From sequence record NC_042564.1: DNA of 14,504 nt; one strand, 5' to 3'. The notes below the pieces were generated by a model. The model did not search any database. It worked only from the letters and a program-made list of their open reading frames with translations, and was not told the origin of the DNA. This stretch comes from Escherichia phage Bf23. How positions within the stretch are numbered: position 1 is the first letter of the stretch; every line of letters begins with the position of its first letter. Of the stretch, positions 3,019 to 14,447 are shown in pieces. The position numbers and the translations under genes are program-made.

Positions 3019-3132
3019 AATTGAAAACTCGCAGGGTTAGCGAAACCATCCTCAATTAGCATGTTCTAGAATACTAATCAAGTTATCTCCTATTGCACGC
3101 AGCTCAAGACGAGTACGAATTTTCAATTGTGG
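3015..3132 (-). ncRNA. candidate structured RNA / precursor-processing stem flanking the 5' end of tRNA-His
   Basis: 17-nt inverted repeat ccacaattgaaaactcg (3015-3031) vs cgaattttcaattgtgg (3116-3132), one mismatch, enclosing 84 nt with no credible ORF; the first arm includes the first 4 nt of tRNA-His. Confidence 0.3.
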
Positions 3133-3247
3133 CGGCTCTCAGAAACTCTTCTATTCTAGCCCCAGAAGCTTACCCCCGAACGCCTGTCGGGAAAGTCTTT
3201 CCAAGAGCATCAAATAGCACCGTTACACTTTGAGCCATTGATATATC

Positions 3248-3332
3248 AAGGAACAGAAGGATTTGAACCTTCACGAGATAGACCATTTATCTCAACCGCT
3301 TTTAAGGTATATTTCTAGGAGTGGATGTTCCT
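3248..3332 (-). tRNA. tRNA-like gene, class II length (85 nt), isotype undetermined (possible Leu-TAA) or pseudogene
   Basis: perfect T-arm gaagg/atttgaa/ccttc and perfect 7-bp acceptor (3249-3255/3326-3332) but no canonical anticodon stem; CCA not encoded; contains hairpin agata/gaccatt/tatct. Confidence 0.35.
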
Positions 3333-3386
3333 AGTAAACCTATTCGGCAGTCCCGTCTACCAATTCCGGCATATTCCAAGAATTTT

Positions 3387-3560
3387 TTATAAACCAGCAG
3401 AAGCCTCATTTAAAGCATCAACAATAGCTTCACGCTGGGTCATTCCATACCCGGTGGAGTCTAGGTGAGGCAAATAGGCTGCCCACCCATTATCTGTTTC
3501 ATGAAGGAATGCTTTAAATTTTTTACCGTCCTTCATTGTTACAGTAACTGTTTTGCTCAT
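3387..3560 (-). CDS. small ORF (57 aa), possibly HicB/UPF0150-like fold
   Basis: ATG at 3558-3560 with AAGGAA SD; translation ...ETDNGWAAYLPHLDSTGYGMTQREAIVDALNEASAGL resembles the HicB N-terminal domain pattern; below ORF-track size cut-off. Confidence 0.4.
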   Translation of the reverse strand: MSKTVTVTMKDGKKFKAFLHETDNGWAAYLPHLDSTGYGMTQREAIVDALNEASAGL

Positions 3561-3580
3561 AAGGATTCCTTATAGTTAAT

Positions 3581-4036: not shown

Positions 4037-4062
4037 AAATTCTTTAGTTTACTAAGGCTATT

Positions 4063-4230
4063 AGCTCGGCGTAACTATAGCACCTTCGCTTCGAGCGGAA
4101 GGAACTACGTCATCTCGCAAACCCGATACACTATTCAGTTGCCGCTGAATCTAGTGGACTAATCTAGAACCTCTCCCAAATCGTAGGGATCGTGCTTTTT
4201 GGCAGCCAGTCCTAGGTCGAGCTAATACCT
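4063..4230 (-). ncRNA. candidate structured RNA in promoter-proximal leader (no ORF)
   Basis: long-range inverted repeat ggctattagctcgg (4063-4076) vs gtcgagctaatacc (4217-4230) enclosing about 140 nt with internal hairpins (ttcag/ctgaa 4133-4148; ctag/ctag); no ORF with RBS. Confidence 0.3.
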
Positions 4231-4487: not shown

Positions 4488-4951
4488 AAATTCTCTACTA
4501 ATAGTTTGAAAGCGTCTAACAGAGGTACTTCAAACCATTCTCCTGATACTTTGTAGTCTTTCAGAAGATTATGTAATGCTTTTTCAGTTCTTCTCTTGTC
4601 CGAGGAGAATCTAAAATGGTATAACTTGTAATCACGATATGGCGAATATGTTTGATAACTAGACAGTCTTTCATTTACGTCTACTGTCATACCTATCTTA
4701 TAGAGTCCAGGCCATGCTGGGTTACCTATTACATATACAAACCCTTCTGTTATAGGGATTTTATGCTCCCTTTTATACTTCAGCAGGTTTAACGCTGCCA
4801 TTCTATAACAGAACTTAAACTCTGAGGATTTTAGTTTACCTTCTTTACCAGATATTTCGTTATACTTCTCCATATACCTACGTATTAAGGAGTCAGTAAT
4901 AGTAAAGTGCTTTGGAAGATCCAGGGCTTGAAGTACACTGTTAATAAGCAT
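4478..4951 (-). CDS. T5orf172-family (GIY-YIG-like) domain protein, 157 aa; putative homing-type nuclease
   Basis: ORF track; motif GFVYVIGNPAWPGLYKIGMTVDVNERLSSYQTYSPYRDYKL typical of the T5orf172 domain; AAGGAAG SD; paralog of 6749-7267; 3' end overlaps 5' end of tRNA-Lys. Confidence 0.8.
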   Translation of the reverse strand: MLINSVLQALDLPKHFTITDSLIRRYMEKYNEISGKEGKLKSSEFKFCYRMAALNLLKYKREHKIPITEGFVYVIGNPAWPGLYKIGMTVDVNERLSSYQTYSPYRDYKLYHFRFSSDKRRTEKALHNLLKDYKVSGEWFEVPLLDAFKLLVENLDC

Positions 4952-5105
4952 AAACTTCCTTAATAGAATGGACTTTTAAGTAAGAATGATTAATCCCAAA
5001 CTCCGCCATTACTTCTTTTTCATCTTTTCCATAATGTGCAAGTAAGGATCTTGAGGTATTATTACCTAAACGTTTGTCACTTACTACTAATCGAAATACT
5101 TTCAT
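4941..5105 (-). CDS. possible small ORF (54 aa)
   Basis: ATG at 5103-5105 with GAGGA SD 7 nt upstream; stop overlaps start region of 4478-4951; below ORF-track cut-off. Confidence 0.35.
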   Translation of the reverse strand: MKVFRLVVSDKRLGNNTSRSLLAHYGKDEKEVMAEFGINHSYLKVHSIKEVYAY

Positions 5106-5125
5106 TTCGAAATCCTCTATTAAAA

Positions 5126-5203
5126 TGGAAGCGGGTGCAGGAATCGAACCTACCTCTTTCTAGCTTATGAGACTAGCGATCTCTACCAGAGATCTAACCC
5201 GCA
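5126..5203 (-). tRNA. tRNA-Met-type (anticodon CAT), possibly initiator-like (position 1-72 unpaired)
   Basis: encoded CCA, T-arm gcagg/aatcgaa/cctac (one G-U), anticodon loop CTCATAA, acceptor 6 bp plus unpaired terminal pair. Confidence 0.55.
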
Positions 5204-5209
5204 ATTGTT

Positions 5210-5285
5210 TGGTCAGTGCGGCAGGACTCGAACCTGCGACCCGAAGCATCCAAGGCTCCCACGCTACCAACTCCGCTACGCACTG
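5210..5285 (-). tRNA. tRNA-Pro (anticodon TGG)
   Basis: encoded CCA, perfect T-arm gcagg/actcgaa/cctgc, perfect acceptor 5214-5220/5279-5285, anticodon loop CTTGGAT. Confidence 0.65.
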
Positions 5286-5316
5286 TTAATTTTTGTTAAC
5301 TCACTTTATAAAATAT

Positions 5317-5345
5317 ATTATACAGATAATTAAGCATAATAGCAA
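5317..5345 (-). promoter_or_regulatory. sigma70 promoter (T5 early-promoter-like)
   Basis: minus strand TTGCTA (revcomp 5340-5345) - 17 nt - TATAAT (revcomp 5317-5322); conserved flanking motif cagataattaagca / aatgaatttttaa. Confidence 0.7.
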
Positions 5346-5372
5346 ATGAATTTTTAATAAATTTACTTATTG

Positions 5373-5472
5373 TGTAGGCCACCTGGGGGCTATCAACCCC
5401 ACGGCTGACAAAGAAGTTTGCGAGACTTCTCTTAAAAGCCAGAATAGACCCGCCGATCTATCGGAACCTACA
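5373..5472 (-). ncRNA. tRNA-like cloverleaf element (about 100 nt), noncanonical; strand uncertain
   Basis: outer stem tgtagg(5373-5378)/cctaca(5467-5472) enclosing three hairpins: ggggg/cccc (5385-5400), agaagt/acttct with 7-nt loop (5412-5430), ccga/tcgg (5453-5464); no TTCGA T-loop, no CCA. Confidence 0.3.
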
Positions 5473-5620
5473 TAATAAGTAAACTTTCGTTTACTTACAC
5501 CTACTTGGTCAGGAGGATTTTCAGCGACTAGAACCGGCCGGAAACTTATCGCCTTGTTTTACTACCACCTTACGGACGCACAAGTTGTTACACGAATGCG
5601 CAAGCTCGGTTTGGTAGATT

Positions 5621-5694
5621 TGGTGCGGTCGGAGGGAATCGAACCCCCAACTTCTGGTTGGCAACCAAAAATTATACCCTTTAACTACGAACGC
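5621..5694 (-). tRNA. tRNA-Gly (anticodon GCC)
   Basis: encoded CCA, T-arm gaggg/aatcgaa/ccccc, anticodon loop TTGCCAA with G-U in stem, acceptor with one mismatch. Confidence 0.55.
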
Positions 5695-5703
5695 AAAATA
5701 AGT

Positions 5704-5824
5704 CATTCTAGGCAGGATTCGAACCTGCTATCACTTGTGCGGACTTACGAGAACCATTCTTTCACTCGAATCGAACGAGCTTCTGCCCTAGCCAAGCTGG
5801 TTTCCCCATCAACCACGCTAGAAT
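5704..5824 (-). ncRNA. composite tRNA-like element with two T-arm motifs (disrupted or expanded tRNA?)
   Basis: perfect T-arm gcagg/attcgaa/cctgc (5712-5728) and perfect 7-bp acceptor-like pairing attctag(5705-5711)/ctagaat(5818-5824), but 121 nt long with a second T-arm-like ctcg/aatcgaa/cgag (5765-5779) and no canonical anticodon arm. Confidence 0.3.
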
Positions 5825-5946
5825 GTTTGATTGTTTTCAGTGCAAGAGTCCGAGTCTTGGACACGACCGCTTCGCAAGTACATAGGCAGCTTATCATGAG
5901 TCAGCACTTCCGAATTGCTAGCTCCGTGTTCTGCACTGAAATTTTA

Positions 5947-6294
5947 TTAGTTTAACCGGAAAGTATTATCTACTTCACCATTAATTGTTCGGCATTCCTC
6001 TGGGATTGTCGGAGTGGCCTTGTATTCCCACCACTCAGCACCGTCATACTCCCCACGTTCTAGCCAAGTTCCATCGGCAAACCATACATTACCATAAAGT
6101 AATTGTCCACCGTATCCAGAATCATATTCAAAGTCTAGGTTATTAAGAAAATCCTCAATATCTTCTTCTGTATAGCCTAAAGGTAGTACCCAAACTTTTT
6201 TATCCCCATAATACCCGAATTCTATTTTAATACACTTAACTTCAGAATTAGTATTTTTTAAGGCAAGTAACAACTCTTCTTTGGCATTACGCAT
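5947..6294 (-). CDS. hypothetical protein, 115 aa
   Basis: ORF track; ATG at 6292-6294; Trp/Tyr/Gly-rich; weak SD. Confidence 0.55.
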   Translation of the reverse strand: MRNAKEELLLALKNTNSEVKCIKIEFGYYGDKKVWVLPLGYTEEDIEDFLNNLDFEYDSGYGGQLLYGNVWFADGTWLERGEYDGAEWWEYKATPTIPEECRTINGEVDNTFRLN

Positions 6295-6319
6295 AGTATA
6301 TTCTCATACTGAATTATTT

Positions 6320-6396
6320 TGGCGCGACCGATGGGATTTGAACCCACATTCTCTCCCGTGACAGGGGAGTACCATTACCAAGCCAGCCCCGGTCGC
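6320..6396 (-). tRNA. tRNA-Asp (anticodon GTC)
   Basis: encoded CCA, G73, T-arm atggg/atttgaa/cccac, perfect anticodon stem ctccc/gggag with loop CTGTCAC, perfect acceptor 6324-6330/6390-6396. Confidence 0.75.
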
Positions 6397-6405
6397 ATAA
6401 TTTAT

Positions 6406-8125: not shown

Positions 8126-8213
8126 TGGTAGGGGAGGATGGAGTCGAACCACCCGAGTCGCAATGACAACTAATTTACAGTCAGCTCTGCTACCACTTAC
8201 AGAATACTCCCCC
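8126..8213 (-). tRNA. tRNA-Tyr (anticodon GTA)
   Basis: 88 nt class II, encoded CCA, A73, T-arm gatgg/agtcgaa/ccacc, acceptor 8130-8136/8207-8213 with one G-U, anticodon loop CTGTAAA with two G-U pairs in stem. Confidence 0.55.
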
Positions 8214-9872: not shown

Positions 9873-9950
9873 TGGTGGCTCCCCGAGGATTCGAACCTAC
9901 GTACCTTCCAGTTATGAGCTGGGTGCTCATACCATATGAGCTTGAGAACC
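9873..9950 (-). tRNA. tRNA with anticodon CAT (Met, initiator or Ile2 type)
   Basis: encoded CCA, acceptor 9877-9883/9944-9950 with two G-U, D-arm gctc/gagc, anticodon loop CTCATAA; T-stem has only 3 good pairs. Confidence 0.5.
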
Positions 9951-13650: not shown

Positions 13651-14152
13651 TTTAAGTATTTTTAAGAACTCTCGTAAAAACTCTTAAAAATACAGACGAT
13701 ACCGGGAGAGTCATAAGTCTCACTCATTAAGTATTTCAAGACAAAATACAGTAACGTCTATTATTTTCCAGTTTAAGTCAAGGTGACTTAGTGGTTATGT
13801 CCTGCGGTATGCTGAGGACTCGGTTAGGCTAGGGTCATGACTCCCCACCTTTTTGCTGCTACTCAACAGGAGTTATCGCGAATTACCTGTGCTATTGTGC
13901 ACCATTAGTGGCATCTCTCATGCCAGCATTTCCCACTTTGTGGATAGTTTGAAAAACTACTCCGATATGGAGAAAGAACTTCACTATCCTAGAATACCTT
14001 CTAAAGTTCTTCTTTAGCCTGGACATAGTTAAATCGTAATAAAACTATTCAGCAGACTGGTTGGTTAGTCTGGAACCAACTACCGCGTGGTTTAGGCAGT
14101 GCGCAACTAACCTCGGAAGCTTTTACGTTAAAAGCATCAGTTATCCAGTTCT

Positions 14153-14224
14153 TACCGTCCGTAGGATTCGAACCTACATCTTCCACCAGTTACGGCTTGA
14201 TAATACCAATTATACTAGGACGGC
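14153..14224 (-). tRNA. tRNA-like gene, isotype undetermined (possible pseudogene)
   Basis: perfect T-arm gtagg/attcgaa/cctac (14161-14177) and 6-7 bp acceptor pairing (14154-14160/14218-14224) but no recognizable anticodon stem; CCA not encoded. Confidence 0.35.
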
Positions 14225-14447
14225 AGTGTTACTACATAAGTGATTTCCACACCCCACTATTTATAAATTAGAGAAGAGTTTAGGGGAGAGGTTTCAGACG
14301 CCCCATTTTATACGTTCTAGCCACTAACCGGGATTGCCGCCCCCTGTGTACTAGTTTTACAACTAACCCACCGACTCTATTCAGTGCACTCCGGTTGGGA
14401 TTCTGCACTCAGCGTAATCGGCTCGCTGTTCCCTAATTTATGAATAT

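Follow-up and report, generated by a model that had tools for sequence, protein, structure and literature searches.

Phage T4 possesses two small stable RNAs, species 1 and species 2 (rnaC and rnaD), which are read from the strand of its tRNA genes at the distal end of the tRNA cluster. In T5, the low-molecular-weight RNAs designated by Roman numerals were reportedly gel-purified in the 1970s-1980s in the laboratories of Weiss, Ozeki and Ksenzenko/Bayev. The sequence record of T5 st0 (AY692264) lists RNAIII, RNAI, RNA1, RNA2H, RNAIV and rna2 as misc_RNAs in the cluster orthologous to that studied here, with RNAIV, 103 nt in length, at 32841-32943 on the minus strand, and the record of the tRNA region of Salmonella phage 5 (AJ604531) gives rnaIV at 5465-5567 as a "stable RNA with unknown functions". 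We searched the open-access literature and found neither a paper on the function of RNAIV nor a small-RNA transcriptome of T5 or BF23. Here, we analyzed a window of 14,504 nt from Escherichia phage BF23 (NC_042564.1), in which an original prediction, made from the letters of the DNA, had flagged a cloverleaf-like RNA element at positions 5373-5472. This window corresponds to the tRNA gene cluster of BF23, a T5-like coliphage (Tequintavirus). ARAGORN and Rfam each counted 23 tRNAs in it, all on the minus strand, and the flagged element is flanked by tRNA-Pro (5210-5285) and tRNA-Gly(GCC) (5621-5694).

Comparison with the T5-group records revealed that the flagged interval and the ortholog of T5 RNAIV share their boundaries except for 1-2 nt at either end; when the annotation of T5 and phage 5 was mapped over, the mature 103-nt stable RNA occupied 5371-5473 on the minus strand. 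In a pairwise alignment, BF23 and T5 differed by 2 substitutions over these 103 nt, both of them in hairpin 3 of the structure described below, and the family covariance model (R1) assigned 153.7 bits to the BF23 element (over 5359-5487) and 152.1 bits to that of T5. The RNAs of BF23 and of T5 and phage 5 also agree in strand, in length (103 nt) and in their place directly upstream of the promoter P13a. A second BF23 record (OR083247.1), which is 100% identical over the 335 nt around the element, annotates only a predicted promoter there. Judged by its sequence, the element is the BF23 copy of the already catalogued RNAIV, that is, a rediscovery and no new kind of RNA. The original prediction had likened it to the stable RNAs of unknown function of T4. 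It is indeed a structured, non-tRNA RNA gene of that class, and two T5-group records annotate the same stretch in this way; the suggestion of a regulatory or processing RNA, also made in the prediction, is a reasonable guess. The mature ends and the stable-RNA status used throughout are the depositors' annotation for T5 and phage 5. Taken as a whole, our observations are best explained, with a probability of roughly 0.7, by an RNAIV ortholog, a structured non-coding RNA of the minus strand that would accumulate as a stable species; a role in trans through its invariant loops is the less certain part of this explanation.

Consensus structure, strand and relation to tRNA

The interval 5373-5472 folds as an outer stem around three hairpins on either strand, with -31.4 kcal/mol for the plus strand (z -2.65 versus shuffles) and -39.3 kcal/mol for the minus strand (z -2.97), and the predicted cloverleaf-like structure is thus present at this place and exceeds chance. 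For the longer minus-strand segment 5356-5500 (145 nt), the folding energy was -52.9 kcal/mol (z -5.88), a value that 0 of 200 shuffles equaled. We then aligned 25 distinct 129-nt homologs from GenBank phages, IMG/VR and metagenomes (alignment A3, columns 1-129, column i being window position 5488-i), and the counts of sequences and columns given below refer to this alignment. In the hand-derived consensus structure, 98.8% of the 1196 pair cells were occupied by standard pairs. Two-sided compensatory changes were observed at 9 pairs, compared with 2.5±1.2 in column shuffles, and 0 of 500 shuffles reached 9. When the pairing partner was slid by 1-3 columns as a control, 0-4 double-change pairs and 40-53% pairing were obtained. 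An independent run of RNAalifold reproduced this structure together with its 9 covarying pairs. All four core helices are backed both by covariation and by RNAalifold, which answers in the affirmative the covariation check that had been proposed along with the prediction.

In this comparative structure, the closing helix and hairpins 1, 2 and 3 form a compact four-way junction, the linkers of which measure 0, 0, 4 and 2 nt (4 nt before hairpin 3 and 2 nt after it). The upper part of the closing helix, P1, pairs 5463-5472 (columns 16-25) with 5373-5383 (columns 105-115, including a bulged U107), both on the minus strand, as are all of the parts named here; its pair 20-111 changes from G-C to A-U, and several other pairs are kept through wobble-preserving single changes. 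Hairpin 1 (5443-5462) is an 8-bp stem with a GGCG tetraloop (5451-5454), in which 100% of the cells are paired and double compensatory changes occur at two pairs (U-A to C-G and G-C to C-G). An alternative D-arm-like 4-bp hairpin, CCGA-UAGA-UCGG, was disfavoured, as these two double changes back the 8-bp hairpin. In hairpin 2 (5405-5442), a 5-nt bulge separates the lower stem of 5 bp from the upper stem of 8 bp, which carries the loop CUCGCAA (5418-5424), and double changes occur at three pairs. For the lower stem, pairing reaches 100% in the comparative register (columns 46-50 with 79-83), versus 77.9% in the minimum free energy register (columns 47-51 with 82-86), which was dropped. Hairpin 3 (5386-5400) possesses a 4-bp stem and a loop of ~7 nt, with 98% of the cells paired. 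All of its stem columns vary (8/8), and 3 of its 4 pairs carry double changes, which come from at least three lineages; most columns of the loop, UUGAUAG in BF23, vary as well. Because the stem sequence varies throughout while the pairing stays, hairpin 3 looks like a structural spacer. Two details of the predicted fold have to be revised. The 6-bp outer stem that it described exists but is the middle of a closing duplex of ~23 pairs, and the 7-nt loop that it placed on a 6-bp stem is real (CUCGCAA) but is carried by the 8-bp upper stem over the bulge and the 5-bp lower stem.

The same alignment also fixes the strand. As a minus-strand RNA, 98.5% of the core cells are paired, versus 78.3% as a plus-strand RNA. 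The consensus contains 180 G·U cells, all of which turn into A·C mismatches on the opposite strand, and several one-sided changes (e.g., from U·G to C-G or U-A, from A-U to G·U and from G-C to G·U) are neutral in a minus-strand RNA alone. Because the G·U pairs fit the minus strand and not the plus strand, and because every tRNA of the cluster is a minus-strand gene, we assign the RNA to the minus strand, and a plus-strand RNA was ruled out. The original prediction, which noted U33/A37-like loop positions on either strand, had left this choice open.

RNAIV resembles tRNA in several respects. It possesses a four-helix cloverleaf topology, a 7-nt loop of anticodon format closed by a U-A pair, and a terminal helix of 7 positions with a single overhanging 3' nucleotide if the annotated ends are taken. 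The apex of hairpin 2 in particular follows the format of an anticodon arm (a U-A closing pair, then C32 U33 NNN A37 A38), and 11 of its 17 positions are common with the anticodon arms of the phage's own tRNA-Ser(UGA), tRNA-Pro and tRNA-Arg. Together with the site in a tRNA cluster, these features are what one would expect of a decayed tRNA gene that still folds cloverleaf-like by chance. However, the tRNA covariance model (RF00005) gave no match over 5373-5472 at E<=10, and ARAGORN made no call. Neither a T-loop (GTTCRA/TTCGA) nor a D loop with GG was found in the element. No CCA is encoded, the 3' end reading ...CCUACACA followed by AUAAG, and 22 of the 23 tRNAs in the window do encode CCA. 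Unlike those of a tRNA, the arms measure 8 bp and 5+8 bp and the junction linkers follow the 0/0/4/2 pattern. Given the missing T-loop, D-loop and CCA and the silence of both the tRNA model and ARAGORN, RNAIV is not a tRNA, and its resemblance to tRNA lies in the topology plus the hairpin 2 arm. In addition, compensatory changes and invariant loops indicate purifying selection on structure, signatures that a pseudogene would lose, and we regard the decayed-gene explanation as very improbable. The original prediction had already pointed out the absence of a TTCGA loop and of CCA, and both absences were borne out; its wording "tRNA-derived", however, found no support in these searches. The Rfam scan that it suggested showed tRNAs alone: with Rfam 15, only tRNAs reached the gathering threshold in the window, and over 5280-5960 no match overlapped the element at E<=10.

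Comparison with other structured RNAs gave a similar picture. The bacterial Y RNA-like YrlA combines a long closing stem with a tRNA-like module, and RNAIV, like YrlA, has a long terminal stem that closes a multi-hairpin module; unlike YrlA, it lacks a T-arm mimic, and no Rfam family matched it at E<=10. The analogy with the stable RNAs of T4, which accompanied the original prediction, holds for the class, as these RNAs and RNAIV are alike small, stable, on the tRNA strand and at the distal end of a cluster. It does not extend to descent: the phage is T5-like, and rnaC and rnaD show no similarity to RNAIV. Across the tRNA region of T4, the scores of model R1 did not exceed 8.9 bits, and over rnaC they did not exceed 5.6 bits (E 2.5). 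Furthermore, a canonical tRNA T arm, CCGGGUUCGAAUCCCGG, is part of rnaC but not of RNAIV, and the two folds differ.

Invariant loops and possible function

The constraint on the core of RNAIV is distributed unevenly. In the two loops GGCG and CUCGCAA, 0 of the 11 columns vary (0/4 and 0/7), whereas 36 of the 71 core stem columns do (51%); between BF23 and TrudiGerster, 33 of the 103 core positions differ. On this alignment, the loops are under sequence constraint and the stems are constrained only to pair. Because the GGCG and CUCGCAA loops are invariant while the stems need only pair, RNAIV may be an accessory RNA that acts in trans and offers its loops to a protein or RNA partner, a reading that we hold tentatively and at slightly less than even odds. 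In one version, a host factor recognising anticodon-type loops would be captured by the RNA, a decoy or sponge with an accessory, non-essential role for the phage. It has been demonstrated that the tRNAs of T5 neutralise tRNA-cleaving defences (PMC11464382). A more specific proposal is that of a counter-defence or host-takeover RNA, in which the hairpin GU-CUCGCAA-AC and the GGCG loop would mimic a tRNA or another host RNA and titrate away or block a host factor such as a nuclease directed at tRNAs or another defence protein that binds RNA; this proposal has its appeal in view of the action of the T5 tRNAs, but we consider it improbable as it stands.

A partner for the loops was sought within the cluster. 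The ortholog of the stable RNA 2H (4056-4227, minus strand) is the first gene after promoter P13b, and a stem of 10 bp closes it. The loop and flanking stem at the apex of hairpin 2 are complementary over 13 bp, including 3 G·U pairs, to GGGUUUGCGAGAU in RNA 2H (4108-4122), which would allow the CUCGCAA loop to form an RNA-RNA complex with it. This site was the best on the whole minus strand of the window (-18.8 kcal/mol), the fold of RNA 2H leaves most of the segment unpaired, and Epseptimaviruses retain 10 bp of the match via wobble. However, 10 of 120 shuffled probes (8%) found an equally good site in the window. In addition, FFH1-like phages keep RNAIV while the matching part of RNA 2H is missing, and two contigs (L044 and L045) keep RNA 2H while RNAIV is missing. 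The invariance of the CUCGCAA loop makes a covariation test of this pairing impossible. Because the match was neither significant against shuffles nor co-conserved, the kissing interaction was rejected, and we regard it as highly unlikely.

Closing duplex, maturation and the P13a junction

RNAIV is embedded in a longer closing duplex. An inverted repeat at 5359-5378 and 5467-5486, with 20-nt arms that are 90% complementary, gives together with its inner part ~23 pairs and delimits an extended 129-nt element (5359-5487, minus strand) made up of RNAIV and an AU-rich lower closing stem; it is this extended element that lies behind the z value of -5.88. The lower stem (columns 1-14 with 117-129) contains one bulged G. 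Its 5' arm, AAAGUUUACUUAUU, at 5474-5487 lies outside the annotated mature RNA and pairs with the 3' arm, AAUAAGUAAAUUU, at 5359-5371, which overlaps the A/T-rich region upstream of P13a. In 24 of the 25 sequences, the duplex is interrupted by a single conserved mismatch, which lies at 15x116 in the T5/BF23 type and at 16x115 in the Epseptimavirus types. The annotated mature 5' end corresponds to column 15 (position 5473) and the 3' end to column 117, so that, by the annotation of T5 and phage 5, each strand of the duplex bears one of the ends, at the conserved mismatch, and a 3' overhang of 1 nt is left. In the lower stem, 1 of 27 columns varies, so covariation is not assessable there. The conservation of this stem says nothing about RNA pairing, because it exceeds what pairing needs and because the 3' arm overlaps the region preceding the promoter.

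Upstream of the element, a perfectly paired hairpin of 9 bp with a GAAA loop was detected on the minus strand at 5476-5497 (-8.0 kcal/mol, z -7.2). The lower closing stem of RNAIV uses the 3' arm of this hairpin as its own 5' arm, and the two structures are therefore mutually exclusive. The GAAA hairpin is found in most non-T5 upstream contexts, behind several different modules, and not in T5.

RNase III excises RNAs from long flanking duplexes, as in the rRNA precursor stems and the early processing sites of T7. RNAIV likewise has a closing duplex of ~23 bp with an internal mismatch and ends on both strands; its overhang is 1 nt and not 2, and the comparison is one of mechanism only. A flanking duplex of about two helical turns (at least 20 bp) is expected of an RNase III processing stem, and ~23 pairs were counted here. 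RNAIV would be read from the minus strand at the end of a long tRNA/ORF unit, directly upstream of P13a, and in the precursor the closing helix would extend to the ~23-bp duplex. Two routes of maturation can be proposed. First, an RNase III-type double-strand cut in the long duplex might be followed by slight trimming of the 3' end. Second, where the GAAA hairpin sequesters the 5' arm and so frees the trailer, RNase P might generate the 5' end, and exonucleases might trim the 3' end back to the "discriminator" base in the manner of a tRNA.

The transcriptional setting is as follows. A sigma-70 promoter, TTGCTA-17-TATAAT, lies directly downstream of RNAIV on the minus strand at 5317-5345; with 10 of 12 positions matching, it is the best in the region. 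It is the equivalent of P13a, which is annotated in T5 and phage 5 and is the predicted promoter of the BF23 record, and it opens the next tRNA transcription unit. No intrinsic terminator, that is, no GC-rich hairpin with a U-tract, was predicted in 4900-6400, and there was no convincing minus-strand promoter candidate directly upstream of RNAIV. Because neither a terminator nor a convincing promoter of its own was predicted, RNAIV would most simply be the final gene of the upstream tRNA/ORF transcription unit. The junction between RNAIV and P13a is constant in all homologs examined, whereas the upstream and downstream neighbours both differ among phages, and the breakpoints of the modules from phage to phage fall at the 5' edge of the element. 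Upstream, BF23 has tRNA-Gly(GCC), ~130 nt of additional sequence and the competing GAAA hairpin, whereas in T5 rna2 is the direct upstream neighbour. After P13a, BF23 continues at once with tRNA-Pro, T5 with a small ORF and phage 5 with the homing endonuclease gene hegB. The ~130 nt between tRNA-Gly(GCC) and RNAIV (5488-5620, minus strand) are kept in several Epseptimaviruses and not in T5, and they showed no convincing fold (z -0.65).

This setting suggests an explanation in which the element acts purely in cis, as a processing site (RNase III/RNase P "punctuation"), a block to 3' exonucleases or an insulation of P13a, and in which the 103-nt RNA is a by-product. The ~23-bp closing duplex, the constant position directly upstream of a P13a-type promoter amid varying neighbours, the lack of a predicted intrinsic terminator in the region and the dispensability of the element described below all agree with such a role, and the two stable RNAs of T4 likewise lie at the distal end of their tRNA cluster. 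However, three extra hairpins would be superfluous for a processing or stabiliser hairpin, the U-tract of a terminator is absent, and a cis-acting element has no need for invariant loops (0/11 columns) beside stems that vary at 51% of their columns. A purely cis-acting role thus seems unlikely, though it is the most serious of the alternatives, and we favour the trans-acting role over it.

A further explanation holds that the conserved feature is an element of the DNA (an upstream element of the promoter, a recombination or homing site, or a palindrome) or that the region encodes a plus-strand product or a small ORF. The almost invariant flanking arms (1 of 27 columns varying), the overlap of the 3' arm with the A/T-rich region upstream of P13a and the module breakpoints at the 5' edge of the element would all be expected of a DNA-level role, and small plus-strand "hypothetical proteins" are called over the element in some genome annotations. 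However, the compensatory and G·U-preserving changes of the core make sense only for a minus-strand RNA, and the annotation of both T5 and phage 5 gives a stable RNA. A role of the DNA might account for the flanks but not for the core, and as an explanation of the element it has very little probability. The coding sequences called on the plus strand over RNAIV in several GenBank genomes (e.g., L005 497-607(+), H46, H65 and H88) are probably annotation artefacts, since the covariation is of the RNA type.

Several points weigh against a trans-acting stable RNA, the explanation that we prefer. First, the lower closing stem is near-invariant, its pairing is without covariation support, and its conservation may come from the adjacent promoter. 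Second, a single divergent lineage (TrudiGerster/STWB21) accounts for 7 of the covarying pairs, and the independent events are fewer than the cell counts suggest; further covariation, in hairpin 3, comes from at least three additional lineages. Third, the 1-nt overhang at the annotated ends departs from the 2 nt that RNase III leaves. Fourth, expression, ends and processing enzymes in BF23 are taken from the database annotation of T5 and phage 5 and from analogy. Finally, the search for a partner of the invariant loops came up empty, the sole candidate, RNA 2H, having failed.

Distribution, neighbouring RNAs and significance

We searched public sequences for further copies of the element. Approximately 381-404 GenBank phage records carry it, essentially all of them Tequintavirus or Epseptimavirus; of these, blastn returned 381 records at 80-100% identity. 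As a rough denominator only, a T5-type RNase H at >=80% identity was found in ~436 records. Among 15 close T5-like IMG/VR contigs, model R1 detected the element in 12, at 146-154 bits, and in the other 3 (L044, L045 and L053) it is missing and other tRNA modules occupy the site. In these three contigs, the RNAIV-P13a module is gone from the region ~600-800 nt downstream of the gene of a 115-aa protein. L044 and L045 are also without rna2, and their next promoter leads directly to RNA 2H, whereas L053 retains rna2. These arrangements illustrate a cassette-like mosaicism of the tRNA region. No paralog was found, as the sole match of R1, both in the window and in 16 kb of T5, was the element itself. 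Moreover, R1 gave no match in 64 viral contigs (L059-L122) with distant relatives of the neighbouring 115-aa protein, none in the tRNA region of Klebsiella phage Sugarland (Sugarlandvirus) with filters off, and none in 60 pattern-selected stretches of bacterial genomes, all of which were spurious. Pattern scans of metagenomes and IMG/VR returned T5-like sequences only, plus spurious GC-rich matches.

The viable T5 variant T5Mos, described in the PARIS study, carries the deletion Δ30661-38625 (PMC11464382). Because the fragment coordinates of that paper agree with the numbering of AY692264, this deletion should take in RNAIV (32841-32943). The element is missing from 3 of the 15 close contigs, it would lie within a viable deletion and its phage range is narrow; on these grounds, RNAIV is lineage-restricted, accessory and dispensable.

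RNAIV is not the only unusual RNA of the cluster. The neighbouring ortholog of rna2 (5703-5830, minus strand) is annotated in phage 5 (AJ604531), as is rna3, as a "tRNA-like RNA with unknown functions". In this RNA, a canonical T arm, GCAGGUUCGAAUCCUGC, is combined with a D-like arm and an acceptor-like stem of 8 bp, and ~65 nt take the place of the anticodon arm; it was called neither by ARAGORN nor by the Rfam tRNA model, and the canonical T arm of T4 rnaC is similar to that of rna2. Both rna2/rna3 and RNAIV are non-tRNAs of the same cluster, but rna2 keeps the T arm and a D-like arm, which RNAIV does not. The region of T5 RNAIII, RNAI and RNA1 corresponds to 3019-3580 (minus strand) in BF23. 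Within it, 3248-3378 (minus strand) gave a sub-threshold match of 131 nt to the Rfam tRNA model (25.9 bits, the gathering score being 29), which suggests another tRNA-like RNA with a large insertion. Among the tRNA calls, that at 9876-9950 (minus strand) was made by Rfam and missed by ARAGORN, the tRNA-Tyr at 8126-8213 (minus strand) was called by ARAGORN and is not on the Rfam gathering list, and the "tRNA-Ser(act)" at 14152-14225 (minus strand) encodes no CCA, and its anticodon arm is odd.

Older literature that is not openly accessible aside, several aspects of RNAIV may be new. These are the secondary structure backed by covariation together with the assignment of the strand, the embedding of the mature RNA in a precursor duplex of ~23 bp, the contrast of two invariant loops with freely covarying stems, and the range restricted to Tequintavirus and Epseptimavirus, with gaps in some members and a position inside a viable deletion of T5. 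The function of the stable RNAs in the tRNA clusters of T4 and T5 is a decades-old question, and the anti-defence tRNAs of T5 make loop mutants of RNAIV timely. If the decoy reading is true, the role of the T5 cluster against tRNA-cleaving immunity would extend from real tRNAs to a non-tRNA decoy.

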